The notes beneath the pieces are model-generated. The model made no database searches. It saw only the letters and a program-made list of their open reading frames with translations, and had not been told where the DNA came from. This document shows, piece by piece, positions 8,619-27,120 of a DNA stretch of 64,000 nt (the first letter of the stretch is position 1; the number at the start of each line of letters is the position of its first letter). The DNA comes from a virus: positions 32,001 to 96,000 of the IMG/VR virus record IMGVR_UViG_3300008459_000008, one strand, 5' to 3'. The translations under genes were made by a program, and so were the position numbers.

Positions 8619-8627
8619 TAATTAAAT

Positions 8628-8837: not shown

Positions 8838-9139
8838 TGGATCATTTACTTTTATTTGAGGATTTTATCAACGAAGAGAAATCTTATAAAGGTTCTCACG
8901 GAGGACTAGACAAGTGGTTTAAAGAAAAGTGGGTTGATATTTCCAAAACAAATAAAGATGGTTCACACCCACCTTGTGGTAGATCCGATACTAATAAAGG
9001 TGGATATCCTAAATGTAGAAAAGTAAGAGTAGCTGCTAAAATGTCAAAGAAACAGAAAAAAGCATCAGTAGCTAGAAAAAGAAAAGCTGAGAGTGAAGGA
9101 TCAAAAGGTAGTAGTAGAAAACCAAACTATTCTAAATAA
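8837..9139 (+). CDS. Small basic phage protein (C-terminal half of DUF5872-like family)
   Basis: GLDKWFKEKWVDI...PCGR...YPKCR motif. ATG at 8837 overlaps the previous TAA. Leader MDHLLLFEDFINEE is near-identical to that of the previous gene. Confidence 0.6.
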   Translation: MDHLLLFEDFINEEKSYKGSHGGLDKWFKEKWVDISKTNKDGSHPPCGRSDTNKGGYPKCRKVRVAAKMSKKQKKASVARKRKAESEGSKGSSRKPNYSK

Positions 9140-10254
9140 CCCTCGTCATATACTCTAGCAATCTCATTAAACTCTTGTAAAACACCATTTTTAATCTTCT
9201 CACTTTCATATTTCTGATTATTAATGTATTGTCTGATCAAATCAGTATATTCAAGTTGAATTGATGGCACAACACCATTATTTAATTCATCATCAGTGAT
9301 GTCATCTATGATAGATTTTACTTCTTCATCATTTTTTTCCAAAACTAAATCATCTATGTAGTCGACGGAAGCAAAGTTTCCAGATTCCAACATCAATTCA
9401 AGTTTCCTCCTTAATTTCCTATTGTTAATTAAAAGGGAATTAGAAATAAAAAGATCTATGTAGTCTTTTGTTGAAACATTTTCAAGTGTTTCAATATCTT
9501 CTTGTGTTCTGATGTATATTTTTTTATACCTTGGGGAAACATTATTTGGTATAAAATTTTCTTCATCTGTCAATGTATCGAGAATAAATATTCCCTTTTG
9601 ATTATTTGTATCATTTCTGTCCATTTCAAAATTATTACCCACAAAAGTAAAGTTTTTAGAAACTTGTAGGATATGTATATGTCCAGAATAAACATTTTTG
9701 TATCCTGAAAATTCCTCAACATCAATTTTATCATTGTTCTTATGTGCAACAGATGTTAAGTGCATCTTAGCACCATTCAAATCAGAGTGACAAAATAGAT
9801 AATCAGCACTTTTGAATTTTTTCAAGACATTAATCTGTTCTTGTTTTTTTTCTACCCACGGTAACATCAAAATTGATTTTCCACAGAAGTCAATCTTTGT
9901 GGGTTCTTCATAAACAGTAATATTTGGAATATATTTGTATAGTTTAACAGTATTTACATCATTAGATGCTTTAGTATATAAATCATGATTTCCTATTAAA
10001 ATATGTATAGGACAAATCTTTGACAATTTTTCAAGTAAATCTTGAGCGTAGTTTAAAATGTTAATAGGCACAACAGAACGATTATCAAATAAATCACCAC
10101 AATGAACGATGATATCATTTTCACTCAGTTCTTTTTGGACAAGAGGTAGTAGAAACTTCTCGAAATATTCTTGATGGACTTTAAACCATTTATCCACTGA
10201 ATTTGGATAACCTAAACCAAGATGTGTATCACCTATAATTAAAATTTTAGACAT
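9127..10254 (-). CDS. Mre11/SbcD/T4 gp47-like recombination nuclease subunit
   Basis: Metallophosphoesterase motifs GDTHLG, GDLFD, GNHD, FCH, SGHIH; 375 aa. Confidence 0.85.
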   Translation of the reverse strand: MSKILIIGDTHLGLGYPNSVDKWFKVHQEYFEKFLLPLVQKELSENDIIVHCGDLFDNRSVVPINILNYAQDLLEKLSKICPIHILIGNHDLYTKASNDVNTVKLYKYIPNITVYEEPTKIDFCGKSILMLPWVEKKQEQINVLKKFKSADYLFCHSDLNGAKMHLTSVAHKNNDKIDVEEFSGYKNVYSGHIHILQVSKNFTFVGNNFEMDRNDTNNQKGIFILDTLTDEENFIPNNVSPRYKKIYIRTQEDIETLENVSTKDYIDLFISNSLLINNRKLRRKLELMLESGNFASVDYIDDLVLEKNDEEVKSIIDDITDDELNNGVVPSIQLEYTDLIRQYINNQKYESEKIKNGVLQEFNEIARVYDEGYLE

Positions 10255-10355
10255 ATAACAATTATATGTTGATATGATTAATTGTTATAAAAAACTAATT
10301 TTTACATTTTGTTTTTTGTGAAAACGATATATAAAAAAAAAGAAAAAATTAAGTA

Positions 10356-13300
10356 ATGAAAAACATTTTATTATACCTTAGTTGTTTGTTAATTACATCC
10401 AACTTATTTTCTCAAGTAAAGATGGATGTTTGGAATAAAAATCCAAACACATCTCGTACTATAGCAAAAATAAATCCATCCAAATTACCAGTGTCATTCG
10501 AATCGACTTTACCAGATGGTTCAACAGAAATTTATGATAAATGGAACGTCTCTGACATTGAAGTAGAAACATCAACAAAGAAAAAATATACTTTCAAACC
10601 AAATGCTTATAAAGCAAGAAAAAATTTAAGTATTTTGACATATACTGAAAATGGTTGGGAAGGTATGTATCAATCACCTGATGGTTCATCTTATTCAATG
10701 AATCCCACCAGTGTTACTAAAGATGATACAAGACCACAAGGAACTCTAGGTGGTTGTGAAACGATGATTCCGGCAAATATTACGATAAACAAAATACCAG
10801 AGAGAACTCCACAAACATCAAATTTATTAACAAATACTCAATATTATGACCCTGCTATAACAATAAATAAAAATTTAACAGTGTATGCAGAGGTGACAAA
10901 TGACTTACACGTTTCACTAGGAAATAATTTAACAACAACACAAAACTGGGTCACTAATTTGTTTCTTGCAGTTTCCAATATTTACGCTCAGGAAGGTCTG
11001 ACAGTCACATTGAATAAAATTTATGTCTGGCAGTCTGTTGATCCGTATGGTTATCAAACCACAACAACTTCGTCATGTATCCTAGGGGGTGGGTCCCTTT
11101 ATGGATCAGCATTCTGTACCGGTTTTACTGATAATATTAAAAATAATCTACCAGTCAATCCAAATAACACCACGACTAATGTGACATCTCATTTCAAACA
11201 TCTATTACATGGTAGAGGTTCTTTAGGTGGTATAGCTTGGTTAGGAGGCAACTCTGATGGATACAATCCTGATACTTGGAATGTAGTCGGAACGAATTTA
11301 TCAACCGCAGTGTCAGGTTTCACGAGCACGACAATCCCTTCACAAGCTACCACAGGTTATAACTGGCCAGTATATGTCACCGCACATGAGATGGGACACA
11401 ATTGTGGTTCCTCACACACACAGTTTTGTAGGTGGAGAAATGATCAAGGTGCCTATTTAGGTAGATTAGATAGCTGTTATAAAGGAGAAAATTACAATTC
11501 TACGGGATATTGTACTCAAGAAACTGTAGAACCTTGTCCTGCCAACTGTACTCAAACCACATATCTAACCACTAAACCAAATAATAATGGTACAATAATG
11601 AGTTACTGTCATTTGAATGGTTCTGTAAACTTGTCATCAAGATTTGGTAAATATCCAAGATTTGCTATGAGAAGTTCTGTGGATAGGACCCCATACATAC
11701 TCAATCCAATCTCAACTTTACCAGAAGTCGCGTCCGCAAATGTCACTTCTATAACATCTTTTACAGCTACTTGTGGAGGGAATGTGACATTTGGTGGTGG
11801 TTCAGGTGTAACCGCAAGAGGAGTATGTTGGGCCCCTTACCCAACAGAGCCTACAACCGCCAACTCTAAAACCCTCGATGGTACAGGAACTGGATCATTC
11901 ACTAGTGTTATGACTAATTTGACACCAGCGGTGACTCTTTATGTAAGAGCGTATGCAACTAATTCTGCCGGAACTTCATACGGAGGATTAAGACTTTTCA
12001 CACCAGGTCCGCCAGTACCACCAGTTTTGACAACAGTGCCTATCAATACCGTAGGACAAACAACAGCAAAATCAGGTGGTACAATTTCAAGCGGTGGTGG
12101 GGGAACTATTACTAGAAAAGGTGTTGTTTGGAGTATATTCCCCATACCTGATAATACTACTATAAACTCGGAGATTGGTAATACGAATGATGGTACTGGA
12201 ACTGCGAACTTTACAAGTTCAATAACAGGCCTTACTCTTGGTGTAACTTATTACGTGAGAGCATATGCAGAAAATGAGTATGGTGTCGGTTGGGGTAGTG
12301 AATTAACATTCACAACTAGTACTGCTACTACACCATCATTAACAACCAATTCAGTTACTACATTCACAAATACAACAGCAACTATGGGTGGTAATGTAAC
12401 TGCGTCCGGTGGAGCCTCAGTTTCAAGACGAGGTGTTTGTTATGCGACTACTCAAAATCCCACAATCGCTAATACTGTAGTAAATATAGGTACTGGTACT
12501 GGCACTTTTTCACAAAGTGTGACTGGATTGAGTCAAGGTGTAACCTATTATGTGAGAGCCTTTGCAGAAAACCAAGCTGGTCTTAATTATGGCACTCAAG
12601 TTAGTTTCAAAACATTGACTATCCCATCTGTGTCAACCACCGCAGCTACTAATTTAGCAACAACATCATTTACTACAGGTGGTAATGTAACATCTGCCGG
12701 TGGTGGCAGTCTTACTGTTACTGCTAGAGGTGTTTGTTATTCTACCTCAACTAGTCCGTCTCTGACTAATGGTACTGTGTTATCAATTGGAACCGGAACT
12801 GGCACATTCACAACAAACATCACTGCATTGACACAAGGCGTCACATACTATGTGAGAGCTTATGCAACTAATACTTATGGTACTGCTTATGGAAGTCAAA
12901 TCACTGTCAAGACACTGACTGTACCAACAGTCACTACTACGGCTTCAACAGCTCTGTCTAAGACAGGTTTCACAACTGGTGGTAATGTAACTTCAGCAGG
13001 AGGTGGTACCTTATCAGTCACTGAAAGGGGTATTGTTTATTCAACAACGGTACAAGATCCAACTACATCCAATACAAAGGTTTTAGCAGCAACACCAACA
13101 GGTACGGGATCTTATACAATAAGTTTGACGGGTTTAACACCTGGTACAATTTATTATGTTAGAGCTTATGCAATAAATTCAGTAGGTACTGGTTACGGTT
13201 CTCGTATAACAGTGACCACTCCAAGTGAACCAGTATTATCAACAACTTCGATAACATCTATATCAACTACAACAGCATCATCTGGTGGAACAATTACATC

Positions 13301-15092
13301 AAGTTCGGGATCAACAGTTACTGCTAGGGGGGTTTGTTATTCCACATCTCCAAATCCTACGACCGCAAACACAACCACAAGTAATGGGACTGGAACAGGT
13401 ACATTTACAAGTAGTCTAACTGGACTATCTCCTTCTACTACATATTATGTAAAGGCATACGCAATTAACACCACTGGTACGGGTTATGGTAATGAATTAT
13501 CATTTACTACGACATCTTCTGGATCTTTTCCATCACTAACAACTACTGCAGCAAGTGGTATATCTCAAACTACTGCATCTTCTGGTGGAAATGTGACTGC
13601 TGATGGTGGTTCAACGGTCACCGCAAGAGGAATTTGTTACGCAACCACACAAAATCCAACCCTATCAAATACGGTAGTAAATAGTGGTTCGGGTACTGGT
13701 GTTTTTACAAGTTCATTATCTGGATTGACACCAAACACTACTTATTATATCAGAGCCTTTGCTACAAATTCAAATGGAACAAATTTCGGAACACAAGTTT
13801 CTTTTACGACTTTATCCTCAATTACATTTCCCATTTTAACAACAAATACAGTGACATCCATAACTTCAACATCAGCAACTTCTGGTGGTAATATTACAAG
13901 TGATGGTGGTGCTACTGTCACTGCAAGGGGGGTTTGTTATGCCACAACACAAAATCCAACGACCTCAAATACAGTGATTACAAGTGGTTCAGGTACTGGA
14001 ACATTTTCAGTGTCGATCACTGGTCTTACAAGTGGTGTAACCTATTATGTTAGATCTTATGCTACTAATTCAGCGGGCACAAATTATGGAACCCAACAAT
14101 CTTTTACAACTTTGGTCTTTCCTTCATTATCTACTACTTCCGCGACTAGTGTCACTTCTACAACTGCGACAACCGGAGGTAATGTAACTTCAGATGGTGG
14201 GGCTACAGTAACCGCTAGAGGTGTGTGTTATGCAACAACACAAACCCCAACCCTTTCAAATTCATTCACATCAAATGGTACCGGTGTGGGATCATTTACC
14301 AGTAGTTTAACTGGTCTAACTCAGAATACTACTTACTATGTAAGAGCTTATGCGACTAATTCAGTTGGTACAAATTATGGTAGTCAAATCAGTTTTACGA
14401 CTACTACTGGTGAGACTTTACCTACTGTAACGACTACCGCAGTGACTTCTGTGACTTCGAACAGTGCCTCTTCAGGTGGAAATGTTACAAGTTCTGGTTC
14501 ACAATCTGTAACATCTAGAGGAGTAGTCTGGTCGACCTCAATAGATCCTACAGTGTCATTGACTACAAAAACTGTCAATGGTAGTGGAACAGGTACTTTC
14601 ACTAGTTCAATAACATCACTATCAGCTTCTACTACTTATTATGTAAGAGCTTATGCTACGAGTTCTGTTGGTACTGGTTATGGTAATAATGTTCAATTCA
14701 CAACATCATCATCACCTACAGCATCTTGCACAGTGACTACTTTTGCACCATACCAATTAAATGGTTTTTGGAGATTTAAATGGAATTTGAATTCGAATTG
14801 TAACAGCTACACTGTCACTGTAAGTAGATATAATTATACGAGTTCTTCTGTCCAACCTCCAGTTGGAGCAACACCTGTTGCTACAGGTGCTAGATTGACC
14901 AACTATGTTCCCACGACCAATGAAATTTCTCAAGGATTTATTGACCAACAAATGAATCCCCAACCTGCTACCACTGGATATTGGTACAGTTTTGATGTAA
15001 AATGTAATGCAACTTCTTGTAGTGGTTCAAACACTACTAGATCACCTTACTTCTATGTAGGTACTACTCCAGCATCGACAATCGGTAAATAA
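10356..15092 (+). CDS. Secreted-type M12B/reprolysin-like zinc metalloprotease with 10 FN3-like repeats (paralog 1)
   Basis: Signal peptide ending LFS|Q; HEMGHNCGSSH zinc motif; IMSY Met-turn; ten ~98-aa GGNVT..RGVC(W/Y)..YYVRAYATN repeats; Cys-containing C-terminal domain. Confidence 0.85.
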   Translation: MKNILLYLSCLLITSNLFSQVKMDVWNKNPNTSRTIAKINPSKLPVSFESTLPDGSTEIYDKWNVSDIEVETSTKKKYTFKPNAYKARKNLSILTYTENGWEGMYQSPDGSSYSMNPTSVTKDDTRPQGTLGGCETMIPANITINKIPERTPQTSNLLTNTQYYDPAITINKNLTVYAEVTNDLHVSLGNNLTTTQNWVTNLFLAVSNIYAQEGLTVTLNKIYVWQSVDPYGYQTTTTSSCILGGGSLYGSAFCTGFTDNIKNNLPVNPNNTTTNVTSHFKHLLHGRGSLGGIAWLGGNSDGYNPDTWNVVGTNLSTAVSGFTSTTIPSQATTGYNWPVYVTAHEMGHNCGSSHTQFCRWRNDQGAYLGRLDSCYKGENYNSTGYCTQETVEPCPANCTQTTYLTTKPNNNGTIMSYCHLNGSVNLSSRFGKYPRFAMRSSVDRTPYILNPISTLPEVASANVTSITSFTATCGGNVTFGGGSGVTARGVCWAPYPTEPTTANSKTLDGTGTGSFTSVMTNLTPAVTLYVRAYATNSAGTSYGGLRLFTPGPPVPPVLTTVPINTVGQTTAKSGGTISSGGGGTITRKGVVWSIFPIPDNTTINSEIGNTNDGTGTANFTSSITGLTLGVTYYVRAYAENEYGVGWGSELTFTTSTATTPSLTTNSVTTFTNTTATMGGNVTASGGASVSRRGVCYATTQNPTIANTVVNIGTGTGTFSQSVTGLSQGVTYYVRAFAENQAGLNYGTQVSFKTLTIPSVSTTAATNLATTSFTTGGNVTSAGGGSLTVTARGVCYSTSTSPSLTNGTVLSIGTGTGTFTTNITALTQGVTYYVRAYATNTYGTAYGSQITVKTLTVPTVTTTASTALSKTGFTTGGNVTSAGGGTLSVTERGIVYSTTVQDPTTSNTKVLAATPTGTGSYTISLTGLTPGTIYYVRAYAINSVGTGYGSRITVTTPSEPVLSTTSITSISTTTASSGGTITSSSGSTVTARGVCYSTSPNPTTANTTTSNGTGTGTFTSSLTGLSPSTTYYVKAYAINTTGTGYGNELSFTTTSSGSFPSLTTTAASGISQTTASSGGNVTADGGSTVTARGICYATTQNPTLSNTVVNSGSGTGVFTSSLSGLTPNTTYYIRAFATNSNGTNFGTQVSFTTLSSITFPILTTNTVTSITSTSATSGGNITSDGGATVTARGVCYATTQNPTTSNTVITSGSGTGTFSVSITGLTSGVTYYVRSYATNSAGTNYGTQQSFTTLVFPSLSTTSATSVTSTTATTGGNVTSDGGATVTARGVCYATTQTPTLSNSFTSNGTGVGSFTSSLTGLTQNTTYYVRAYATNSVGTNYGSQISFTTTTGETLPTVTTTAVTSVTSNSASSGGNVTSSGSQSVTSRGVVWSTSIDPTVSLTTKTVNGSGTGTFTSSITSLSASTTYYVRAYATSSVGTGYGNNVQFTTSSSPTASCTVTTFAPYQLNGFWRFKWNLNSNCNSYTVTVSRYNYTSSSVQPPVGATPVATGARLTNYVPTTNEISQGFIDQQMNPQPATTGYWYSFDVKCNATSCSGSNTTRSPYFYVGTTPASTIGK

Positions 15093-15148
15093 GGAATTAT
15101 CCTCAAATAAAATTTGAATATATACAAAAAAAACATATCAAATACAAA

Positions 15149-18100
15149 ATGAAAAAGTTTCTGTTCTTTCTAACAAGTTTGATTTTAACGTTGAATTCGT
15201 TTGGTCAAGTGAAATTGAACGTTTGGGACAAAAATCCAAATGTATCTAAAACAATCAATAATATAAAACCGAATAATTTACCAAAAACATTCGAGTCGTT
15301 GACACCGGATGGTGAAAAAACCATCTATGATAGATGGGAAGTTCCAGCTATAACAGTTGTGTCATCTAAAGGTAAGTCATACACAACAAAACCAGTGGCT
15401 TACAAATCAAGAAATGGATTTGGTGTCTTAACCTATTCCAAAAATGGGTGGCAGGGTTTACATTCTGGTAGGAGTGGTAAATTTTACTCAATGACACCTT
15501 CAAAGGTTAATGAGGACACATCGTCATTGAGATCAGTCGAAGAATATTGTGGAGGTGCAGGTTTACAACCAAGTAGCCAAAATATTGATCAAAAAAAAGA
15601 CACAAAAAAGACTCCGTCGGTCGGTAGATTAACTAATAGTGATTTTTATAATCCATTAGTACCAATCAATAAAACTTGTAGTGTTTATGCAGAAATTGCT
15701 TTTGATCTACATACTGCGTTGGGTGGAAATCTAGCTACAACTGAAGATTGGGTTACGAGACTTTTTCTAGGTATATCACAAATCTATTTGAATGAGGGTA
15801 TAACAATATACTTGAATAAAGTTTATGTTTGGGAAGCGTTAGACCCATATGGATATACCACACAAACAGGTACACAGGATGTAGTTAGAAGTAATGTACT
15901 CAATCTATTCGGTGGAAAAATTTTAAATAATCTTCCAACCAATCCAAATTCAAACTTTAAACATTTACTTACTAATGCTACTTATGGGGGAGTTGCTTAC
16001 TACGGACCATTCACACCATCAGATGGATACACTCCCGCAAGCGATTTATTCGGTCCGACCAGTAGAGTAGGTCTATCTAGTATGAGTAACAAACTAGAGA
16101 TAGCATCAACACCAACAGATTTAAGTGTTTACAACGATAGAAGATGGTGTTTACTTGTAGTTGCTCATGAGTTAGGTCATAATTTTGGTTCAAGACACAC
16201 ACAGTGGTGTGGTTGGAAAAGTGATGTTGGTACACTAATTGGTAGACTAGACTCTTGTACAAATGGTGAAACTTCAAATCCACTAGGACCTAATTGTGGA
16301 GCAACTAGCTACCCATCATATAAACCGACCATAATGAGTTATTGTCAGTTCCATCAGAATGCTCCTGCTTTTTCACAATTTTTATCCAATGGTTTTGGAA
16401 AGTATCCTAGATTTAGTATAAGGACTGGATTAGCCAATTCATCAGACATACCTTATACAAATGCTTCGATACCAACACTTACCACAACCCCAATAGTTAC
16501 CTATACCGCTACAACTGCTACATCGGGTGGTAACATCACAAGTGATGGTGGTGCTAATGTAACCTCGAGAGGGGTGTGTTGGTCAACATCACCAAACCCG
16601 ACAATATCGGGATCAAGAACTCTTGATGGTTCCTTTTCAGGGAGTTTTACTAGTAACATCACAGGTCTTTTAGGTGGAATAACTTATTACGTCAGAGCTT
16701 ATGCAACCAATCAAGCCGGAACTGCTTATGGTAATGAAGTTAGTTTCACTACATCAGTACCCCTTGTACCAACACTATCGTCAACAACCGCCGCAACATC
16801 TATCACCAATAACAGCGCAACATCAGGTGGTAATGTGAGTGCAAATGGTGGTGGTTCAATTACCGCTAGGGGTGTTTGTTGGTCAACTTCAACAACCCCA
16901 ACAATATCAAATTCGAGAACTAATGATGCTGTAGGTACAGGTACAGGCTCTTTCACAAGTAGTTTGACGGGTCTATCAGCTGGTACAACATACTATGTAA
17001 GATCTTACGCAACAAACAGTGCAGGAACGGGTTATGGACCACAGATAACATTCTCAACATTTTCCGCATCTTCAATACTTATAAACACTACTGCTCTTAC
17101 GGGATTAGCTCCCAAAAACGTGACGACGGGTGGAACAATTACTTCAGACGGAGGTTCTGCAGTGACAGCAAGAGGGGTGTGTTGGTCAACAACAAGCCCA
17201 CCAACTATATCGAATAGTAAGGTCAATACTGGAACAGGTACAGGAACGTATACAAGTACGGTTAGTGGATTATCTCCATCTACGACATATTATTTGAGGT
17301 CATTTGCTACAAACTCTAGTGGTACAACATATGGTAATGAACTCTCCTTTACAACCACATCTGTTCCAACATTCATTAATGGTACTCCTAGTTATGTCTC
17401 ACAAACATCTATAAAAACCAATTACACTATAAGTTTTCCAAATCAATCGTTTTCCAGCCATGCTTTGGGTGCTTCAACGACAAACCCACCGGATTCCTAT
17501 AATCTGAATTCATCATCTTATACTTTTAATTCTGTATCAGGAACATACCAATCACTTCTCGGTAGAAAATCGACTTCACAAGGTCTTCAACCTTCAACGA
17601 CATATTTTATTAGACCTATAGCAACAGACATATATGATAATTTCTATTACGGACCAATAACACAAGCTACTACGCTTGCTCCTTCTCTACCTGTCTGTAC
17701 TACGTATGTTGCAACTGAAGTTAGTACCCCGACTACAAATGCATCGACCGCTAAATTGAGTGGTAAAGTTACATCAATAGGTGGGGCTATCACAGAAAGA
17801 GGTTTTTGTTATTCTACAACACAAAATCCAACCACATCAAATAGTAAAGTTACTACAACAACTTGTTCATCGGATGATGATTGTTTATTATCATTTACAA
17901 ACACAGTGGCTAATTTTACTCCTGGTACTACCTACTATGTAAGATCCTACGCGATAAATCCAAGTGGTGTTGGTTATGGGAATCAAGTATCATTCACAAC
18001 ACCGATTTATGTCTATCAAGGACCACCAATAGTCGTTATTGACTCAATCAGAAACATCTCAACTGTTGGTGCTAAACTTTATGGTCGAGTGACAAACAGA

Positions 18101-21100
18101 GGGGGTTCTGATTGTGTATTGAGTAGTGGATGTAGAGGTGTAGTTATAAGTGCAGTCACAAATAGTCCATCGAGTGGATGTGGAGTAGATGCAAACTTTG
18201 ATCCTATATGTTGGTCATTTGTTGAAACTCCAAATGTTCAAAGTATAACAGGTGCTTTTGAAGTGGATTTCCAGGCAGGCAATCAATTGATGAAAGCAAA
18301 TACAACTTATTATGTTAGGGCATACGCCACTAATTTTTTCGCAAATAACCAAAACAATTACGGATACTCCGCAACAAGTACATTTAAAACATTATTAACT
18401 GGAACAACACCCCTACTTTATACCAACACTACTGTGAGTATCACAACCACGAGCGCAACAAGTGGTGGATTTATAACTTCACAGGGTGGTGCAAGTGTCA
18501 CTCAAAAGGGAGTAGTGTGGTCTACATCTCCAAATCCAACCACATCACTTTCTACAAAAACTTCTAATGGAACAGGCACTGCAGCTTATTCAAGTAATAT
18601 GACAGGTCTCACACCTAATACTTTATACTATGTAAGAGCATACGCTGTAAATAGTTTTGGAACATCTTATGGTCCTCAAGTACAATTCACTACAAATGCG
18701 AGTGCCGGACTAGCCACATTAACAACTACATCAGTCACAAATTTATCTACAACATCGGTGACATCAGGTGGTAACATTACAAACAGTGGTGGTACAAATG
18801 TTACTGCAAGAGGCGTATGTTACTCCACATCAACTAACCCAACAATAACTAACGGCACAGTTGTCGCGAGTGGTTCTGGTACAGGATCGTTCACAACAAA
18901 TATCACTGGATTGATTCAAGGTAATACTTATTTTTTAAGGGCTTTTGCTACAAATACTTCCGGTACAAGTTATGGTAATCAAGTACAAATCACTACACTA
19001 ACACTACCATCAATAACCACTACCGTCGCAAGTAATGTAACCAGCACAACAGTAATTACTGGTGGTAATGTAACATCGGATGGTGGTTCGACTATTACGG
19101 AAAGAGGTGTCTGTTATGAAACAACACAGAACCCAACTACAGGAAATTTTAAACTAGTATCAACTGGCACGACAGGTACGTTTACATCAAACATAACTGA
19201 CTTGACACCAGGCACAACTTACTATGTAAGGGCATACGCTATAAATTCTGTAGGAACTCAATACGGAACTCAAATAAGTTTTACTACCACCGCAGCACAA
19301 ACAGTACCCACTGTGACAACAACTAATCCAACATCTATCACAACTAACACGGTAAGTAGTGGTGGTACTGTTAGTTCGGATGGTAATTCCACGGTTTCAT
19401 CAAGAGGTGTTGTTTGGTCAACATCTTCGGGTCCAACAATCAATCTTACAACTAAAACGGTTAATGGTAGTGGAACTGGTAGTTTCACAAGTTCAGTTGG
19501 AGGTCTTTTACCGGGTGTACTTTACTACATAAGAGCTTATGCTACAAATTCAATTGGTACATCTTATGGTTCAGAATTCACATTCACCACTTTAACAACT
19601 ACACCCACATTATCTTCTACCATTACAGCATCAAATATAACTCAGACCTCAGCAATCTCAGGAGGAAACGTTACAAGTGATGGTGGGATAACAATTACTG
19701 AAAGGGGGGTATGTTGGTCAACATCAAGTAATCCGACTGTTAGTCTAAGTACAAAAACAATAGATGGATCTGGTGTTGGTAGTTTTGTTAGCGATCTCAC
19801 AGGATTATCTGCGAGTACTACTTATTATGTTAGAGCTTACGCTACTAATTCAAATGGTACTAGTTATGGAACACAAATATCATTTACTACTTTATCATCA
19901 ACTACGGTTCCTACTGTCACAACCACAACCGCCTCATCAATTACATTAACATCGGCCGTATCAGGTGGTAATGTGACTTCGGACGGAGGTACTGTTGTGA
20001 CTGTGAGGGGGGTAGTTTGGTCTACATCTCCTTCACCGACAGTATCTTTAACAACTAAAACTCAAGATGGTACAGGAATTGGTACGTTTACAAGCTCTAT
20101 GACCGGTTTAACCGCGTCAACAATTTACTATTATAGAGCATATGCGACTAACTCTCAAGGGACATCATATGGTAATCAACTATCATTTACCACCACTGCA
20201 AACTTACCTGTTGTGACAACAACAAACGTAAGTTCCGTCACACTCACAGGTGCTGTTTCTGGTGGTAACGTAACATCAACTGGTGGAGCAACAGTCACAG
20301 CAAGAGGGGTATGTTGGTCAACATCACCTAATCCTACAATATTGAACTCAAAGACAACTGATGGAAGTGGGACTGGTACATTTACAAGTACTATCTCTAA
20401 TTTATCACAAAATACAACCTATTATGTCAGAGCATACGCAACTAACTCATCTGGTACCGCATATGGGACAGAATTACAATTCATCACATCAAACACATCT
20501 TTACCAACTGTTAATACAACATCTGTCACATCTATAGATTTCACAAGTGCTATATCTGGAGGTAATGTGGTATCAGACGGTAATTCAACAGTGACATCGA
20601 GAGGTGTGGTGTGGTCTGAAACACAAAATCCAACCCTTAGTAATTCATTTACAGTAGATGATAATGGTACTGGTACATTTACAAGTAATCTCACAAATTT
20701 GACTGCCGGCGTCACATATTATGTAAGAGCGTATGCAACAAATTCCTTAGGTACATCATATGGAAACCAAGTATCATTCGCAACAATACCTGGTCAAGCA
20801 CCAGAGGTATCAACAAACATTATAAATAACGTCACATCCACTAATGCTGAAGTTGTTTATAGTATAAACTCAATAGGTGGTGGAACATTATCATTAAAAG
20901 GTATTTGTTATTCTACATCTCCGAACCCCACAACATCTAATCAGAAGGTAGAAGAAGTCTGTGCAATTGAGACCCCATGTGAGATCGGTCAATATACAAT
21001 TACTTTCATAAATCCATTGTCTCCAAATGTGACTTATTATGTAAGAGCCTACGCAACAAGTGAATTTGGAACCTCATATGGAGAAGAACTTTCCTTCACA

Positions 21101-22360
21101 ACATTGATTAATTTCCCAACACTCACAACCACATCTATATCTGAAATAACATCAACTACAGCTAGTAGTGGTGGTACTATAGTAGACGTGGGTGGTGGGT
21201 CTATAAGTGCGAAGGGAGTTTGTTGGTCAACTTCATCAAATCCTACACTTAATAATTCATTCACAACTGATGGAAGTGGTCCGAATTTCTTCTCTAGTCA
21301 AATTACAGGATTATTACCTGGTGTGTTATACTATGTAAGATCATACGCCACTAATCAAACTGGTACAAATTATGGAAATCAAGTTACGTTCACTACAATA
21401 TCAGTGTCTGTACCTACACTAACAACAAATAGCGTCACTTCAATTACTAACTCATCTGCTATATCCGGTGGAAATATCACATCAGATGGGGGGTCTACTA
21501 TAACAGCAAGGGGAGTTGTTTATTCCACATCACAAAATCCAACCTTATCAAATAATAGAACGTTTGACGGTTCGGGAATTGGTTCGTTTAGTTCTTCTAT
21601 AACTGGTTTATCACCTGGTGTTACCTATTATGTTAGATCATATGCGACCACATCGGGTGGTACAGGATACGGACAACAAAATATTTTTACAACTTCTGGT
21701 TCAATTCCAACTGTATCTACCACCACAATTACAAACATTAGCTCGTCAGGTGCGACGTCTGGTGGTAATGTAACATCGTCTGGCGGATCTTCAATCACTT
21801 CTAGAGGGGTTGTTTGGTCAACATCTCCAAATCCAACTGTATCTTTATCAACCAAGACATCAAATGGAACAGGAACAGGAATATTTACAAGTACAATAAT
21901 CGGATTATCCCCATCAACACTTTATTATGTTAGATCTTACGCTACAAACAGTACAGGTACTGCATATGGTACAGAGTTAACATTTACAACTTCATTGAGT
22001 GGTGGTGGAAGTTGTGCGATTGGTGGTCTAACAGTTACAAGAGTTAATAATGCTTGGAACTTTACATTTAACATAAATCCAAATTGTACAAGTTATACGG
22101 TGAACGTGTGTAGATATTCAAATACTAACCCAGCAATACCACCAACTGCAGGTCAAACACCAGTAGCATGTGCGGTTAGAAATAACATGACTAGTTATGT
22201 ACCAACTTCTTCGGAAATAAGCGCTGGTGTTATAACAAGAGTGATGAGTCCACCACCAGCCAATACCGGTGTGTGGTACAGTGTTGACGTAACTTGTAAT
22301 GGTACTTGTACAGGTACCAAAACTACTAGGTCTGCATATTTCTATAATCCAATCCCATAA
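15149..22360 (+). CDS. Secreted-type M12B-like metalloprotease with 18 FN3-like repeats (paralog 2)
   Basis: Signal peptide ending SFG|Q; HELGHNFGSRH; IMSY; 18 YYVRxYAxN-type repeats; shared C-terminal domain. Confidence 0.85.
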   Translation: MKKFLFFLTSLILTLNSFGQVKLNVWDKNPNVSKTINNIKPNNLPKTFESLTPDGEKTIYDRWEVPAITVVSSKGKSYTTKPVAYKSRNGFGVLTYSKNGWQGLHSGRSGKFYSMTPSKVNEDTSSLRSVEEYCGGAGLQPSSQNIDQKKDTKKTPSVGRLTNSDFYNPLVPINKTCSVYAEIAFDLHTALGGNLATTEDWVTRLFLGISQIYLNEGITIYLNKVYVWEALDPYGYTTQTGTQDVVRSNVLNLFGGKILNNLPTNPNSNFKHLLTNATYGGVAYYGPFTPSDGYTPASDLFGPTSRVGLSSMSNKLEIASTPTDLSVYNDRRWCLLVVAHELGHNFGSRHTQWCGWKSDVGTLIGRLDSCTNGETSNPLGPNCGATSYPSYKPTIMSYCQFHQNAPAFSQFLSNGFGKYPRFSIRTGLANSSDIPYTNASIPTLTTTPIVTYTATTATSGGNITSDGGANVTSRGVCWSTSPNPTISGSRTLDGSFSGSFTSNITGLLGGITYYVRAYATNQAGTAYGNEVSFTTSVPLVPTLSSTTAATSITNNSATSGGNVSANGGGSITARGVCWSTSTTPTISNSRTNDAVGTGTGSFTSSLTGLSAGTTYYVRSYATNSAGTGYGPQITFSTFSASSILINTTALTGLAPKNVTTGGTITSDGGSAVTARGVCWSTTSPPTISNSKVNTGTGTGTYTSTVSGLSPSTTYYLRSFATNSSGTTYGNELSFTTTSVPTFINGTPSYVSQTSIKTNYTISFPNQSFSSHALGASTTNPPDSYNLNSSSYTFNSVSGTYQSLLGRKSTSQGLQPSTTYFIRPIATDIYDNFYYGPITQATTLAPSLPVCTTYVATEVSTPTTNASTAKLSGKVTSIGGAITERGFCYSTTQNPTTSNSKVTTTTCSSDDDCLLSFTNTVANFTPGTTYYVRSYAINPSGVGYGNQVSFTTPIYVYQGPPIVVIDSIRNISTVGAKLYGRVTNRGGSDCVLSSGCRGVVISAVTNSPSSGCGVDANFDPICWSFVETPNVQSITGAFEVDFQAGNQLMKANTTYYVRAYATNFFANNQNNYGYSATSTFKTLLTGTTPLLYTNTTVSITTTSATSGGFITSQGGASVTQKGVVWSTSPNPTTSLSTKTSNGTGTAAYSSNMTGLTPNTLYYVRAYAVNSFGTSYGPQVQFTTNASAGLATLTTTSVTNLSTTSVTSGGNITNSGGTNVTARGVCYSTSTNPTITNGTVVASGSGTGSFTTNITGLIQGNTYFLRAFATNTSGTSYGNQVQITTLTLPSITTTVASNVTSTTVITGGNVTSDGGSTITERGVCYETTQNPTTGNFKLVSTGTTGTFTSNITDLTPGTTYYVRAYAINSVGTQYGTQISFTTTAAQTVPTVTTTNPTSITTNTVSSGGTVSSDGNSTVSSRGVVWSTSSGPTINLTTKTVNGSGTGSFTSSVGGLLPGVLYYIRAYATNSIGTSYGSEFTFTTLTTTPTLSSTITASNITQTSAISGGNVTSDGGITITERGVCWSTSSNPTVSLSTKTIDGSGVGSFVSDLTGLSASTTYYVRAYATNSNGTSYGTQISFTTLSSTTVPTVTTTTASSITLTSAVSGGNVTSDGGTVVTVRGVVWSTSPSPTVSLTTKTQDGTGIGTFTSSMTGLTASTIYYYRAYATNSQGTSYGNQLSFTTTANLPVVTTTNVSSVTLTGAVSGGNVTSTGGATVTARGVCWSTSPNPTILNSKTTDGSGTGTFTSTISNLSQNTTYYVRAYATNSSGTAYGTELQFITSNTSLPTVNTTSVTSIDFTSAISGGNVVSDGNSTVTSRGVVWSETQNPTLSNSFTVDDNGTGTFTSNLTNLTAGVTYYVRAYATNSLGTSYGNQVSFATIPGQAPEVSTNIINNVTSTNAEVVYSINSIGGGTLSLKGICYSTSPNPTTSNQKVEEVCAIETPCEIGQYTITFINPLSPNVTYYVRAYATSEFGTSYGEELSFTTLINFPTLTTTSISEITSTTASSGGTIVDVGGGSISAKGVCWSTSSNPTLNNSFTTDGSGPNFFSSQITGLLPGVLYYVRSYATNQTGTNYGNQVTFTTISVSVPTLTTNSVTSITNSSAISGGNITSDGGSTITARGVVYSTSQNPTLSNNRTFDGSGIGSFSSSITGLSPGVTYYVRSYATTSGGTGYGQQNIFTTSGSIPTVSTTTITNISSSGATSGGNVTSSGGSSITSRGVVWSTSPNPTVSLSTKTSNGTGTGIFTSTIIGLSPSTLYYVRSYATNSTGTAYGTELTFTTSLSGGGSCAIGGLTVTRVNNAWNFTFNINPNCTSYTVNVCRYSNTNPAIPPTAGQTPVACAVRNNMTSYVPTSSEISAGVITRVMSPPPANTGVWYSVDVTCNGTCTGTKTTRSAYFYNPIP

Positions 22361-22375
22361 AAAAACTAAAATTGA

Positions 22376-25300
22376 ATGAAAAAGTTTCTTCTACTAATTC
22401 TATTGACACTAACTTCCGTTCTGTCCTTTGGGCAGACGGAAGTTGATATTTGGAAAAAATCCAACAAAAAAATATTTTCTCAAAGAAAATTTACATTTCC
22501 AAAAACATTTGTTTCCAAATCACCATCAGGTAAACAATTGACTTACCAACGTGTGGAACATCCATATATCAAGATAGAAACATCTAGTGGTAAGAAATGG
22601 ACAAAGAAACCAATTATTTATCAATCTACTTCAGATTTTGGTGTAATAACATATGACGGTAAAAATTGGAGTGGTATACATACAGAGGATGGATACAATG
22701 TAAGTAACTTGACGAAAGAAAAGGTTACTAATGTCAAAATGGATGCTGAAAAATTCAGTTTTGGTGAAGGAGATGTTTTACTCGCGCCCACAAAATCAAA
22801 TAAAAAGATAGGAAGGTCAATCCAAAACAATCCAAATTTTTATGATCCTTACATCAGAATTAATAAAACTTGTGGAGTTTATGTGGAAGTAACAAATGAT
22901 TTATATAAATTTTGGGGTTCAGATACTGGTAGAGTAACACAGTATGTTACAACTATACTAACAAATGTTATAGCTCTATATGACAGAGAGGGTATAAATG
23001 TCACATTGAATAAAATTTTTGTTTGGGACACACCTGATCCTTATGGAAACCCATTCGATAATACACAGTATCTAAATCAATTTACAGATAACATCAACAA
23101 AAATATACCAACTACACCAGAATCTCATTTTAAACACTTATTACACAATAAGAATTTGGGTGGTATAGCTTGGATAAATGGTGAATCAGATGGATACATC
23201 ACATCTGCAAATCTTGATCCATACTATACCTGTGCGGTCACAGGAATTGGTTCAAATATAGTAGTTAATTCTAATGTCACTTATTCTTGGCCAGTAATGT
23301 GTTTCACACATGAAATGGGACACAATCTTGGTTCAAAACATACTCATTGGTGTGGATGGAAAAATGAATCCAATCAAGCCATAGGTAGAATTGACAGTTG
23401 TTACAGAGGAGAAAGCACAGATGGGCCAGATAATTGCACGTCATCTACTTATACAGTAGTTAAATCAAACAACAGAGGCTCTGTAATGAGTTATTGTCAT
23501 CTGAATGGTGCCATAAGTTTCACAACTGGATTTGGTAGATTACCAAGATATTCAATAAGATCTAATCTAAATGATGCACCAGAGGTGCCATTTGACACAC
23601 CACAAGTTCCAACAGTAACTATTGATACTGGTACTCAAAAAACAGCTACTTCTGTTTTAATGACTGGAAATATTGTAATGACTGGAGAAACTATAATTCA
23701 AGAAAGAGGTTTCGTGTGGACAAATTCACAAATCATAATGCCTACATTGAATTTGACAACTAAAATTGCGGTCGGCTCAGGTAGTGGAACATTTCAATCA
23801 CAAATTACAACATTAACTGCAGGAGGACGTTTTTGGTTTAGGGCATATGCGAAAAATGCTACTGGAGTTTACTATAGTGATACAGTAAGGGTACAATTGG
23901 TCTCAACGTCTGTACCAAGTCTGACGACAAATCCTGTAACTCTAATTACAAATATATCGGCTCAAACTGGTGGCACATACATATCGATTGGTAATATTTC
24001 AATTCAAGAAAGAGGTATAGTGTACAGCACTTCCAATCAACTTCCTACCGTAGATGACACTAAAGTGATCACACCATCACCAAATAACACAAACTTCGTT
24101 CAGAATTTGACGGGTCTAACTCCCAACACCACTTATTACATAAGGGCTTTTGCTAGAAATAGTCCGTCAATTTTTTCTTACGGAAATGTACAAACTTTTC
24201 AAACTTTACCAAATGAGTCGGTATCTTTTGGAGTACCTTTAGCTACCGTCAATAGTAGTACACAAATAACCCCTAGTGTTTTTATCACATCTACTGGTAA
24301 TGGTGGGGTCATATCTGAAAGAGGTTTCTACATAGGAACTACACCAAATCCTGAAAATAACATACTTAATAAAAGAGTTGCGGTTTTGGGACAAGCCACT
24401 ACTATGGCATTAGCTATAATAAATCTAACACCCAATACACTTTATTATATCAAAGGTTTTGCGACCACTCAATTTGGTACTTTTTATACACCCGAATTCA
24501 CATCCACTACACTTAGGAGTATACTAGTGATGGATGAAGTTAGTGGAATAGAAGCTACTAAAGCTACGTTCAAATATACTATTGGTCCAACTACATCTAT
24601 CATACCATCATCAGGTGTTTTGTTATCAACCAACATAACACCAACTAGAGCAAACAGTCAGTTCTTTTTTCAATCGACATATGTTGGACAAGGACAAGGC
24701 ACAATTGTTGGACAAGACCTACTTCCAAATACGACTTACTATGCTAGAGGGGTAATACCATTTACTTCTGGTGATTTCTTTTCAACTAATATACTACAGT
24801 TTCAAACTACGGGAGTTGTTGGTACTCCATCGGTTAGTACTTTGGGATCACCCACAAAAACAAAAAATTCGATTGTAGTTAGAGGTGAAGTTGTGTCAAC
24901 TGGATCATCACCTGTATTTAACAGGGGAATTTGTTATTCAACCGCACCAAATCCTACTATAAATAATTCAGTTATTGTATCAGGTCAGGGGATTGGTCAA
25001 TATATTGTAACTATAAACAATTTAGTACCTAGTACAATATATTATATTAGAGCGTATGCTACCAACAAGTCCGGCACTTCTTATGGTTCAGAAATTAATA
25101 TTTCAACCAGTGGTGATATCCCAACAATCATAACAAACTCAATCAACAACATTTCATTAACCACTGCTAATGGAGGTGGTGAAATAACTCTTTCGGGTGG
25201 ACGTGTTGTTACATCTAGGGGTGTAATTTGGTCAACCAATCCCAATCCAACAATAAATTTGTCTACAAAAACAGTAGATGGTAGCGGAATTGGCATATTC

Positions 25301-26392
25301 ACAAGTGCAATCACTGGATTGGTACAGAATACGAAATATTATGTCAGAGCTTATGCCATAAATGATAATGGGGTTGGATATGGTAATGAAATTAATTTCA
25401 CTACTTTGCCTAGTCCAACTACAGCAAATGTAATAACAAATATTGTCACAAATATTTTACCAACATCAGCGACATCCGGTGGTAATGTTACTTATGATGG
25501 TGGAACACCTGTGGTATCCAAGGGGATTTGTTGGTCGACTTCTCAGAACCCAACAATCGACCTTACCACAAAAACTATGGACGGTAGTGGATTGGGTCCC
25601 TTCGTTAGTCAGATATCCAACTTGACCCTCGGCAACACTTACTATGTAAGGGCTTACGCTGTTAATTCTACTGGAACTAGTTATGGTGTACAGTATTCAT
25701 TTACAACTTCGTTAGGCATCCCAATCGTTTTGACTAATCCGGTAAGTGGGATTACAATAACATCAGCGAGTGTTGGAGGGAATGTAACTTCTTCTGGAAA
25801 TGCACCTGTAACTCAGAGAGGAATTTGTTGGTCAATAAATCAGAACCCAACAACAAGTGATAATATAGTACCAAGTGGAAACGGAACTGGAGTTTTTTCC
25901 GGAAATATATTAGGACTATCCTCCTCCACAACATATTTTATCAGAGCTTATGCTACAAACTCTTTGGGAACTTCCTATGGATCACAGATTTCATTTACCA
26001 CTTCACCACAATCTGGAGGTACTTGTCAAATATCTGGACTAACATCCTATCTAAATCAAACGAACAAATGGGAATTTAATTACAATATAAATTTAAAATG
26101 TGCTACATATTCTGTAAATGTGTGTAGGTATAATTACACAGATCCTAATAGTCAACCACCTTCAAATTTACAACCAACAAGTTGTGGAGTAAGAAATAGC
26201 ATGAATGCTTATGTACCAACAATCCAAGAAACAAATAATGGGTACATCCAAAAAGAAATGATACCTCAACCGACGGCTTCGACAAAATCTGGTTTTGGTG
26301 GATATTGGTACAGCATAGATGTCAGATGTTCATCACAAAATTGTTTGGGATCAAATTTGACTAAATACTATTTTTATGTACCAGGTATGTAA
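22376..26392 (+). CDS. Secreted-type M12B-like metalloprotease with 8 FN3-like repeats (paralog 3)
   Basis: Signal peptide ending SFG|Q; HEMGHNLGSKH; VMSY; 8 repeats; shared C-terminal domain. Confidence 0.85.
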   Translation: MKKFLLLILLTLTSVLSFGQTEVDIWKKSNKKIFSQRKFTFPKTFVSKSPSGKQLTYQRVEHPYIKIETSSGKKWTKKPIIYQSTSDFGVITYDGKNWSGIHTEDGYNVSNLTKEKVTNVKMDAEKFSFGEGDVLLAPTKSNKKIGRSIQNNPNFYDPYIRINKTCGVYVEVTNDLYKFWGSDTGRVTQYVTTILTNVIALYDREGINVTLNKIFVWDTPDPYGNPFDNTQYLNQFTDNINKNIPTTPESHFKHLLHNKNLGGIAWINGESDGYITSANLDPYYTCAVTGIGSNIVVNSNVTYSWPVMCFTHEMGHNLGSKHTHWCGWKNESNQAIGRIDSCYRGESTDGPDNCTSSTYTVVKSNNRGSVMSYCHLNGAISFTTGFGRLPRYSIRSNLNDAPEVPFDTPQVPTVTIDTGTQKTATSVLMTGNIVMTGETIIQERGFVWTNSQIIMPTLNLTTKIAVGSGSGTFQSQITTLTAGGRFWFRAYAKNATGVYYSDTVRVQLVSTSVPSLTTNPVTLITNISAQTGGTYISIGNISIQERGIVYSTSNQLPTVDDTKVITPSPNNTNFVQNLTGLTPNTTYYIRAFARNSPSIFSYGNVQTFQTLPNESVSFGVPLATVNSSTQITPSVFITSTGNGGVISERGFYIGTTPNPENNILNKRVAVLGQATTMALAIINLTPNTLYYIKGFATTQFGTFYTPEFTSTTLRSILVMDEVSGIEATKATFKYTIGPTTSIIPSSGVLLSTNITPTRANSQFFFQSTYVGQGQGTIVGQDLLPNTTYYARGVIPFTSGDFFSTNILQFQTTGVVGTPSVSTLGSPTKTKNSIVVRGEVVSTGSSPVFNRGICYSTAPNPTINNSVIVSGQGIGQYIVTINNLVPSTIYYIRAYATNKSGTSYGSEINISTSGDIPTIITNSINNISLTTANGGGEITLSGGRVVTSRGVIWSTNPNPTINLSTKTVDGSGIGIFTSAITGLVQNTKYYVRAYAINDNGVGYGNEINFTTLPSPTTANVITNIVTNILPTSATSGGNVTYDGGTPVVSKGICWSTSQNPTIDLTTKTMDGSGLGPFVSQISNLTLGNTYYVRAYAVNSTGTSYGVQYSFTTSLGIPIVLTNPVSGITITSASVGGNVTSSGNAPVTQRGICWSINQNPTTSDNIVPSGNGTGVFSGNILGLSSSTTYFIRAYATNSLGTSYGSQISFTTSPQSGGTCQISGLTSYLNQTNKWEFNYNINLKCATYSVNVCRYNYTDPNSQPPSNLQPTSCGVRNSMNAYVPTIQETNNGYIQKEMIPQPTASTKSGFGGYWYSIDVRCSSQNCLGSNLTKYYFYVPGM

Positions 26393-26494
26393 TAAAAGTT
26401 ATTTTATCAAAAGAATATATAAATAGATTAATAGGAATAAAAACCGAAATAATATATAATTAAACAAAAAGATTTAAAAAAATATAAATAAGTT

Positions 26495-27118
26495 ATGGCA
26501 CTTCCACATTTTACCCAACTTCAAATGACCGGTTCACCTGGTGGACCTGGGTCTAGACCACAAGAACCAGTATATTTGAACCTGTTTGAGTGTACATTTG
26601 TCCTTCCAACAATTGTTGCAGCTCGTTATGGAACAGATGCTGGACCGGGTCTACTTTTACAACAAGCTACAAAAATAACTTTTGACGTAACTCCATCATT
26701 GGAATCAGTTGAACAGAAATTCAAATATTCTGGTAGAGCTTTTATGAAAACCCCAACAAAAACCACTACAGACTTAACTCTTGGATTCAATGTTAACGTT
26801 AATGATACTGGTAGTATGGAGACTTGGAACATTCTTAAATCATGGTATGATTTAGTCTGGAACTCTCAAAACGGATATTTGCACTACAAAGCAGATATTG
26901 TTGGAACTATCATCGTTAACCAACATGATAAAAAGGGGGTTGTTTTAAGGAGATTAACCTTTCAGAACTGTCAAATCAAATCAATTGGTAATCCAGCCTT
27001 AACTTGGGATGGTGGTGAAATTTGGAATTTTGAATCAGCATTTATAGCTGATTACTGGATTGATGAATACATCGATCAGAACTTCACAATTGTGCCGCCA
27101 CTTGTATCAGGATATTAA
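26495..27118 (+). CDS. Tail tube protein (T4 gp19-like)
   Basis: 207 aa with EPVYLNLFE, LTLGFNVN, LKSWYDLVWN, G..HYKADIVGTIIVNQHDKKG, FIADYW pattern of myophage tube proteins; two AATATATA motifs upstream. Confidence 0.7.
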   Translation: MALPHFTQLQMTGSPGGPGSRPQEPVYLNLFECTFVLPTIVAARYGTDAGPGLLLQQATKITFDVTPSLESVEQKFKYSGRAFMKTPTKTTTDLTLGFNVNVNDTGSMETWNILKSWYDLVWNSQNGYLHYKADIVGTIIVNQHDKKGVVLRRLTFQNCQIKSIGNPALTWDGGEIWNFESAFIADYWIDEYIDQNFTIVPPLVSGY

Positions 27119-27120
27119 TG

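Follow-up and report, generated by a model that had tools for sequence, protein, structure and literature searches.

A phage-borne array of three stalked reprolysin-like proteases with export-type signal peptides, upstream of a tail tube gene

The stretch analysed here (the window) comprises 64,000 nucleotides (nt), bases 32001-96000 of IMG/VR virus record IMGVR_UViG_3300008459_000008, a linear contig of 106,239 bp. It carries a 16-kb array of three adjacent open reading frames (ORFs) on the plus strand, coding for proteins of 1578, 2403 and 1338 amino acids (aa) that display one common architecture. From the N- to the C-terminus, each is composed of a Sec signal peptide, a prodomain of about 145 aa, a reprolysin-like zinc protease, a series of fibronectin type III (FN3)-like repeats and a Cys-rich end domain. 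The region is best explained as a conserved operon of three anciently duplicated, Sec-exported, reprolysin-like (M12B-like) endopeptidase zymogens, and its source as an uncultured freshwater giant tailed phage of a Bacteroidota host bearing a type IX secretion system (T9SS).

ORF calls, Pfam matches and alignments placed gene 1 (1578 aa) at 10356..15092 of the window, on the plus strand like its two companions. Its signal peptide covers aa 1-19, its prodomain approximately aa 20-167 and its M12B-like catalytic domain approximately aa 168-449, with the zinc site at nt 11385-11417 and the Met-turn at nt 11598-11609; ten FN3-like repeats (aa 459-1456, nt 11730-14723) and the Cys-rich end domain (aa 1457-1578, nt 14724-15089) complete the protein. 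Gene 2 (2403 aa, 15149..22360), delimited by the same means, has its signal peptide at aa 1-19, then the prodomain and a catalytic domain at about aa 171-435 (zinc site, nt 16166-16198; Met-turn, nt 16334-16345), followed by 18 repeats, three of them divergent (aa 445-2286, nt 16481-22006), and the end domain (aa 2287-2403, nt 22007-22357). Gene 3 (1338 aa, 22376..26392) starts 15 nt past the gene 2 stop and has no promoter motif of its own. There, the signal peptide (aa 1-19) and prodomain precede a catalytic domain at about aa 160-405 (zinc site, nt 23309-23341; Met-turn, nt 23486-23497), eight repeats (aa 413-1214, nt 23612-26017) and the end domain (aa 1216-1338, nt 26021-26389).

Over their N-terminal ~430 residues, the three proteins shared 38-45% pairwise identity. 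As judged by eye and by alignment, all three N-termini display a basic n-region and a hydrophobic core ending in FS or FG, followed by an invariant Gln20. A Gln exposed by signal peptidase cleavage corresponds to the Q-rule pattern of Bacteroidetes (PMC5837995). The prodomain was conserved among the three proteins; its lone Cys134 was found in genes 1 and 2 and was absent from gene 3 in the alignment, and no cysteine switch is evident in the latter. Conserved Cys residues were also present in the catalytic and end domains, a pattern that fits an oxidising compartment and suggests folding outside the cytoplasm. A crude scan of the record added a minimum of four ORFs whose N-terminus resembles a signal peptide with a Gln near the predicted cleavage site so that, together with the three proteases, the phage would encode at least seven proteins with export signals. 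Three such Q-rule-type ORFs, without Pfam match, lie outside the window (G000:C1:100353-102605, 103605-104078 and 13442-13948, all on the minus strand; 749, 156 and 167 aa). The three proteases are also rich in Ser, Thr and Asn (33-40% in total), yet the O-glycosylation motif D-(S/T)-(A/I/L/V/M/T) occurs in only 0, 1 and 1 copies. This scarcity of the Bacteroidota motif may reflect avoidance.

The zinc sites of genes 1, 2 and 3 read HEMGHNCGSSH, HELGHNFGSRH and HEMGHNLGSKH, all fitting HExxHxxGxxH, and an MSYC Met-turn lies 45-60 residues beyond each of them (M371-S372-Y373-C374, positioned by and invariant in the alignment). The three His and the catalytic Glu were kept in 73/73 family members with the end domain, the Gly being replaced in eight. 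Matches were obtained with Pfam Reprolysin_5 (41.6 and 57.4 bits, cut-off 27), Reprolysin_3 (30.7-39.2 bits, cut-off 22.4) and, for gene 3, PF01421 (23.4 bits, cut-off 20.8). A profile search of PDB sequences retrieved adamalysins, ADAMs and snake-venom metalloproteinases (E 8.9e-10 to 1e-6) and, more weakly, fragilysin; phmmer with gene 3 gave no match among PDB sequences. The residue following the third His was Thr in 61 and Ser in four phage-clade proteins, and Thr in 80 bacterial relatives. An Asp at this place (HExxHxxGxxHD) is the classical adamalysin signature. Since Thr replaces it, the enzymes are called here M12B-like, of a bacterial subfamily, rather than canonical adamalysins. Their nearest bacterial relatives were Bacteroidota proteases, mostly with canonical T9SS tags at the C-terminus, and both the tree and the searches grouped the catalytic domain with secreted proteases of Cytophagales and Chitinophagales. 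Our comparisons indicate that the phage catalytic domain was derived from the T9SS-secreted M12 proteases of the host phylum.

Between protease and end domain, a repeat hidden Markov model (HMM) recognised 10, 17 and 8 units of about 98 aa in genes 1, 2 and 3, respectively, plus one divergent unit in gene 2 that brought its number to 18 at a looser threshold. The units match Pfam fn3 at 35-44.7 bits (cut-off 25) as well as residues 35-131 of the NCBIfam model for the Bacteroides BT0360 arabinanase. None of the bacterial relatives compared displayed repeats of this type. An FN3 unit measures about 3.5 nm, which gives nominal stalk reaches of about 28, 35 and 63 nm for 8, 10 and 18 units.

The last ~115-120 aa of the three proteins are homologous, Cys-rich and 44-51% identical. 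An AlphaFold model built from an 11-sequence alignment reached a predicted local distance difference test (pLDDT) score of 90.8, and its comparison with FN3 domains gave Z values of 8.0-9.4 with root mean square deviations (rmsd) of 2.5-3.6 over 85-101 residues (best: Z 9.4, rmsd 3.4 over 95). According to this model the end domain is an FN3-type beta-sandwich, a generic fold. Likewise, Foldseek against the PDB returned generic immunoglobulin (Ig)/FN3-like entries only, with E above 0.01, and a protein atlas search with the end domain gave no usable lead (scores 0.77 and 0.75). Neither Pfam nor NCBIfam detected a type A (PF18962/TIGR04183) or type B (TIGR04131) T9SS tag in the proteases, and when the end-domain profile was compared with 12 type A tags by hhalign, the probability was 0.1%. 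In place of such a tag, the phage proteins display the FN3-like chain of 10, 18 or 8 units and the family-specific Cys-rich, FN3-like end domain. A canonical tag does occur elsewhere in the window: a phage protein of 311 aa with a Q-rule signal (40107-41042, plus strand) matches PF18962 at 34 bits (cut-off 27), ends with KIYPNP...RIVKI and is likely a T9SS cargo. This protein indicates that the host bears a T9SS and that the phage employs the canonical tag where needed, and it makes the absence of tags from the proteases meaningful, the latter being evidently built, as far as their sequences tell, for something other than the canonical T9SS route. The end domain was also found on signal-bearing phage proteins that are not proteases, and such an association with differing "heads" speaks in favour of a common role in targeting or docking. 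As a general sorting signal of the host it was rejected, since each bacterial genome in which it was found had just one copy.

Much of this layout had been proposed in a preliminary description of the sequence. The three adjacent paralogues of one architecture, the signal peptides cleaved before Gln, the intact zinc sites with their Met-turns and the shared terminal domain were borne out by ORF calls, alignments and inspection, and the 10, 18 and 8 repeats by the HMM, the eighteenth unit of gene 2 at the looser threshold. The prodomain, announced as short, proved to be ~145 aa long. The name M12B-like metzincins stands with respect to the reprolysin HMMs, which scored above their cut-offs, but Thr was found where Asp would follow the third His. 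The notion of an exported protease set with stalks of three lengths was likewise supported, as judged from sequence, in the form of export-type zinc protease zymogens of three fixed lengths. The roles suggested for it (superinfection exclusion, breakdown of S-layer or biofilm, deterrence of grazers) are conjectural.

The array is phage-borne and not a chimera, a point that the preliminary description had made and that was confirmed here by several observations. An independently assembled related phage, represented by contigs L099 (20.7 kb) and L100 (53 kb), displays gene 1, gene 2, gene 3, the tail tube gene and the same downstream genes in this order. Gene 1, of which only the 3' end is present on L099, was 81% identical, gene 2 59% and gene 3 72%; the tail tube gene reached 93% and the other downstream genes 62-77%. 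Protein lengths were nearly the same (2397 versus 2403 aa for gene 2, 1336 versus 1338 aa for gene 3). Part or all of window 9100-19099 was present in 20 public DNA runs from 15 studies, mostly labelled as freshwater or lake-water metagenomes. Contigs from four runs of four studies covered all 30 bins of 8500-28000, and one metagenome contig bridged the junction between the left-hand nuclease gene and gene 1; these contigs were short and broken at repeats, so that no single piece spanned the array, and the joints listed look like repeat cross-matches. Synteny and independent coverage, together with the array's own promoter motif and the recurrence of the family on unrelated phage backbones (see below), establish its phage location.

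Comparison of the record with L099/L100 also informed on selection. The proportion of nonsynonymous differences (pN) was far below that of synonymous ones (pS) in each domain of genes 2 and 3, from prodomain and catalytic domain to stalk and end domain, which indicates purifying selection on all parts of the array. The catalytic domain of gene 3 was its best-kept part (89% identity between phages). That of gene 2 (window 15659-16453) was the fastest-changing part, with 49% identity and a nonsynonymous to synonymous rate ratio (dN/dS) of 0.38, and its end domain (window 22007-22357) the slowest (76% identity, dN/dS 0.08). The contrast between the catalytic domains of genes 2 and 3 may reflect a shifting substrate specificity in one paralogue. 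Repeats within one protein were only 35-52% identical, and those of the two phages paired one to one by position; the repeat arrays are therefore old, have not been homogenised and have been maintained in length. In a quick, unrooted tree of 98 catalytic domains, the three paralogues fell within a single clade (SH-aLRT, the approximate likelihood ratio test support, of 97) comprising 30 metagenomic proteins that carry stalks and the end domain, each paralogue with its own orthologues. The triplication thus predates the split of these phages and is old. Across this clade stalks ranged from 2 to 18 repeats, and our alignments indicate that stalk length is fixed within each orthologue.

The whole N-terminus was shared by about 20 clusters (at 50% identity) and the catalytic domain alone by more than 3000, many of them with PF18962. 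A scan of viral contigs with a single protein gave no match, and the family loci were found by an alignment-based scan. Gene contexts were examined for L099/L100 and for the IMG/VR loci. The family occurred on 11 IMG/VR loci with unrelated backbones, among which family A DNA polymerase and helicase genes mark one locus, head maturation protease and primase genes another. Its minimal forms (536-548 aa) lack the stalk and keep the end domain. One locus (L014:93-13450, from the AT-rich, 91-kb record IMGVR_UViG_3300008459_000012) displays a trio of its own, in which three end-domain proteins (2491, 835 and 1149 aa) lie side by side. The first and the last carry the protease, and the 835-aa protein has neither a protease domain nor any Pfam match. 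Relatives of the 835-aa and 1149-aa proteins sit together on contigs of ~240 kb, and signal peptides of the SFGQ type were found on all the trio proteins and relatives. No inhibitor-like or partner gene conserved beside the protease was seen in the unrelated phages examined. Three further IMG/VR contigs (L015, L017 and L018), one of them of 464 kb, carry M12 proteases with a different C-terminal module; in L015 and L018 this module contains the string IDGNLNTRF and, by eye, recalls a carbohydrate-binding module.

Outside these contigs the family was rare. Neither the protease N-terminal region nor the end domain had a match in 50,697 deposited phage genomes, no PHROG family covered either of them, and the literature searched held no description of a conserved tandem set of stalked, signal-bearing proteases, of the end domain or of the family's recurrence on unrelated uncultured phage contigs. 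This agrees with the preliminary description, which knew of no similar phage system. Among 185,579 species-representative genomes, the prodomain patterns had no match, and the zinc-site pattern retrieved 114 relatives, nearly all labelled Bacteroidota, most listed ORFs carrying canonical T9SS tags. Two of the 79 loci kept from the zinc-site scan displayed the end domain, on single stalk-less proteins of 654-656 aa, one of them among housekeeping genes; the domain was likewise present in 5/401 sampled Cytophagales genomes, always once per genome. Arrays of identical architecture, whose frequency on bacterial chromosomes the preliminary description had seen as decisive, were not found there: only the single stalk-less copies in these 5/401 Cytophagales genomes were recorded. 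As for the T9SS-tagged relatives, those labelled as Citrobacter (L057) and Azovibrio (L039) metagenome-assembled genomes were near-identical to proteins of Terrimonas- and Bacteroides-labelled contigs and probably represent mis-binned Bacteroidota DNA.

Genes 1 and 2 are preceded by promoter-like motifs on the plus strand, GATATATA at 10326..10333 (23 nt before gene 1) and AATATATA at 15117..15124 (25 nt before gene 2). Their consensus, RATATATA, occurs 48 times in the 106-kb record, and 41/48 occurrences lie 0-60 nt upstream of a same-strand start, although such upstream windows make up just 2.8% of positions. The motif was present before the tail tube gene, the baseplate wedge gene and an ORF of 2236 aa, and absent before the SbcD-like nuclease, exonuclease, glycosyltransferase, ATPase and replication genes, a distribution that fits a late or structural class. 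Further examples in the window lie at 5942, 26451, 28295 (minus strand), 30816 (minus), 51585 (minus) and 54801. The motif differs from the -7/-33 promoter of Bacteroidota hosts and is reminiscent of the T4 late TATAAATA.

The array lies, as first described, between a gp47-like nuclease gene and a tail tube gene. The former (SbcD/gp47-like, 9127..10254, minus strand; phrog_100 at 1.5e-58 and Pfam Metallophos) is divergent from the array and lacks the RATATATA motif. The tail tube gene (26495..27118, plus strand; phrog_45) has its own AATATATA motif at 26451-26458. Several further nuclease genes and a baseplate wedge gene (49839-51563, minus strand) belong to the phage surroundings. A motif-bearing ORF of 2235 aa, without Pfam or PHROG match, occupies window 2-5881 on the minus strand and continues upstream of the window (G000:C1:31171-37881). 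The G+C content of the array was 0.35-0.405, versus 0.25-0.35 for most of the window. Since CheckV rated the 106,239-bp record 42% complete, the phage genome would measure roughly 250 kb.

Our preferred reading, held with moderate confidence, is that these are latent, Sec-exported proteases released at the burst to cut host surface proteins, after the manner of the phage hydrolase PghP (see below). They would be synthesised late in infection, cross the inner membrane via Sec and be cleaved by signal peptidase I ahead of Gln20; in the periplasm disulfides would form and the prodomain would hold the enzyme latent. Because no outer-membrane export tag is recognisable, the proteins are proposed to wait there until lysis frees them together with the new phage particles. 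Once outside, they would dock by the end domain on a putative cell-surface ligand, the stalk would set the reach and the protease would clip surface proteins of neighbouring or lysed host cells. The array would then be the protein-directed equivalent of depolymerases that phages release at the burst.

Several points weigh against this scheme. A long rigid stalk is hard to accommodate in the periplasm, so that waiting in this compartment is an assumption. The array immediately precedes the tail tube gene and shares its strand, and the stalk repeats match phrog_6977, annotated "minor tail protein"; both observations leave room for a link to the virion. Signal peptides were assigned by inspection and alignment rather than by a predictor. 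Structure prediction, a check suggested in the preliminary description, succeeded for the end domain but not for the N-terminal half: the AlphaFold2 model of residues 1-430 was poor (pLDDT only 44) and was kept out of the fold search, and the catalytic fold and the latency mechanism are accordingly drawn from sequence profiles. The motif noted early on before genes 1 and 2 and the structural genes is indeed shared with the tail tube and baseplate genes, but is a weaker argument than it seemed as roughly 40% of the genes in the record have it upstream; the late class is therefore provisional. Finally, no RNA run was found among the 21 public runs listed for the stretch searched.

Alternatively, the proteases might be displayed before lysis as a three-layer brush, with the end domain acting as an unrecognised outer-membrane export or anchoring signal, and destroy the phage's own receptors or incoming rival phage fibres, resulting in superinfection exclusion or in keeping progeny off debris. 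This possibility, which we consider rather unlikely, draws on the layout of N-terminal enzyme, spacer and C-terminal beta-sandwich known from T9SS surface-anchored proteases, on the conserved stalk lengths and on the existence of envelope-exported phage proteins with Q-rule signals (PMC10367356). T9SS tags are reported to be Ig-like sandwiches too (PMC11285876), and the end domain is modelled as a beta-sandwich. Yet, the latter does not resemble type A tags in sequence and is matched by neither the type A nor the type B models, a canonical tag is present on another protein of this phage, and an element found once per bacterial genome does not behave as a secretion signal. Timing is a further difficulty since known exclusion functions such as T5 Llp and T4 Imm are made early, but the array shares its motif with tail genes. 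Still less probable is an association with the virion, perhaps formed after lysis, in which the end domain would attach the proteins as enzyme-tipped fibres or whiskers of three lengths, and these would open a way through a proteinaceous surface coat. The neighbourhood of the tail tube and other motif-bearing genes, the PHROG resemblance of the repeats, stalk lengths fixed as in a structural ruler and a terminal module common to several neighbouring giant proteins, recalling the docking modules of multi-fibre phages, all speak for it. However, tailed phages assemble in the cytoplasm, whereas every family member, even those that are not proteases, starts with a Sec signal peptide that looks cleavable and is followed by the Q-rule Gln; the conserved Cys pattern also suggests folding elsewhere, and no virion protein family known in PHROGs is matched by the protease or the end domain.

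A nutritional role, in which digested environmental protein would nourish the infected cell over the long course of a giant-phage infection, appears very unlikely. The proteases do derive from secreted host proteases, and peptidases are among the common auxiliary functions of huge phages (bioRxiv 10.64898/2026.10.24.761521), but enzymes without an outer-membrane route cannot reach outside food before lysis. Moreover, a role in conflict or recognition would explain better than bulk digestion the tail-gene-type motif, the conservation of all three stalk lengths and the rapid divergence of the catalytic domain in gene 2 (49% identity versus 76% for the end domain). An assembly artefact, or host DNA inserted in a viral contig, has a negligible probability: the G+C of the array is somewhat above that of most of the window and its closest named relatives are bacterial, but the gene order recurs in the independently assembled phage, four runs of four studies cover 30/30 bins with the nuclease/gene 1 junction bridged, phage-type motifs precede genes 1 and 2, and the prodomain patterns occur in 0/185,579 species genomes.

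Each part of the array can be set against known systems. The closest are the T9SS-secreted M12 metallopeptidases of Bacteroidota (Reprolysin_3/_5 with Por_Secre_tail, e.g. P0117 from a Chitinophagaceae bacterium), which have the Sec signal, the prodomain and a catalytic domain 30-40% identical in common with the phage proteins; some are as large (2447-2488 aa in L021, L022 and L029). In contrast to them, the phage proteins lack the T9SS tag and carry the unrelated Cys-rich, FN3-like end instead, their stalk repeat type was recorded in the phage clade alone, and they form a conserved, phage-borne tandem trio. Among solved structures, the best relatives by profile were adamalysins, ADAMs and snake-venom metalloproteinases (MEROPS M12B), to which the zinc consensus, the Met-turn, the apparent zymogen organisation and the presumably disulfide-rich, extracellular nature of the enzyme relate the phage proteins. 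They differ by the Thr, instead of Asp, after the third His and by the lack of disintegrin or Cys-rich ADAM modules.

As to phage enzymes, PghP of Bacillus phage phiNIT1 is host-derived, not part of the virion and made at the end of infection; once released by lysis, it removes a barrier on the surface of other cells (PMC6966330, PMC4497714). By analogy, this phage-encoded, host-derived hydrolase (as well as LevP) would be a working model for the array. Yet, PghP is small, stalk-less, acts in a Gram-positive system and has a capsule polymer as substrate, whereas the array enzymes are giant, stalked, three-fold and apparently Sec-exported. Depolymerases of tailspikes and tail fibres are likewise phage enzymes acting on host surface polymers, and multi-host phages can carry several of them (PMC6966330); they are signal-less, trimeric beta-helix virion parts cutting polysaccharide, unlike the signal-bearing, beads-on-a-string metalloproteases of the array. 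Phage proteins with Bacteroidetes Q-rule signals have been reported in P. gingivalis phages (PMC10367356, PMC5837995) and envelope proteins in huge phages (bioRxiv 10.64898/2026.10.24.761521). Both are further examples of phage genes adapted to the host route of Sec, signal peptidase I and glutaminyl cyclase. Those sets consist of small proteins without annotated function, sortase substrates, outer membrane proteins or PspA, and no M12 protease arrays were described there. Finally, a secreted metzincin of phage origin in Listeria monocytogenes is reported to be paired with a TIMP-like lipoprotein and to affect the host envelope (PMC8235301). This pair belongs to a cryptic prophage remnant of a Gram-positive host, is stalk-less and includes an inhibitor, whereas no inhibitor-like neighbour was seen for the array. 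M12-like protease, FN3 spacer and phage enzyme directed against the host surface are thus known kinds; no description was found of the tandem stalked set, the end domain or the family's recurrence on unrelated uncultured phage contigs.

Nearly all known phage depolymerases are virion components that cut polysaccharide. Phages of Bacteroidota have to get past a surface covered with T9SS-anchored proteins and gliding adhesins, and the present one devotes 16 kb of a 106-kb fragment to three exported proteases. We tentatively propose, as a possibility that is more doubtful than not, that phages have spread the end domain as a targeting module, which brings exported heads (the M12 protease or a head of ~700 aa) to one defined site on the envelope or the released virion. 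The stalked proteases of graded length would then be the first protein-directed system for unmasking or destroying receptors, a counterpart of capsule depolymerases for hosts coated with T9SS-anchored proteins. The study offers three objects for further work: the end domain, present in single copy per genome in bacteria, stalk length as a conserved trait, and the occurrence of T9SS-tagged and untagged exported proteins within one phage. If the enzymes do strip surface proteins, they may become tools against Flavobacterium and Cytophaga biofilms. Since the array is conserved and under selection, and the family occurs on unrelated phage backbones, these results point to surface proteolysis as a regular part of infection in Bacteroidota.

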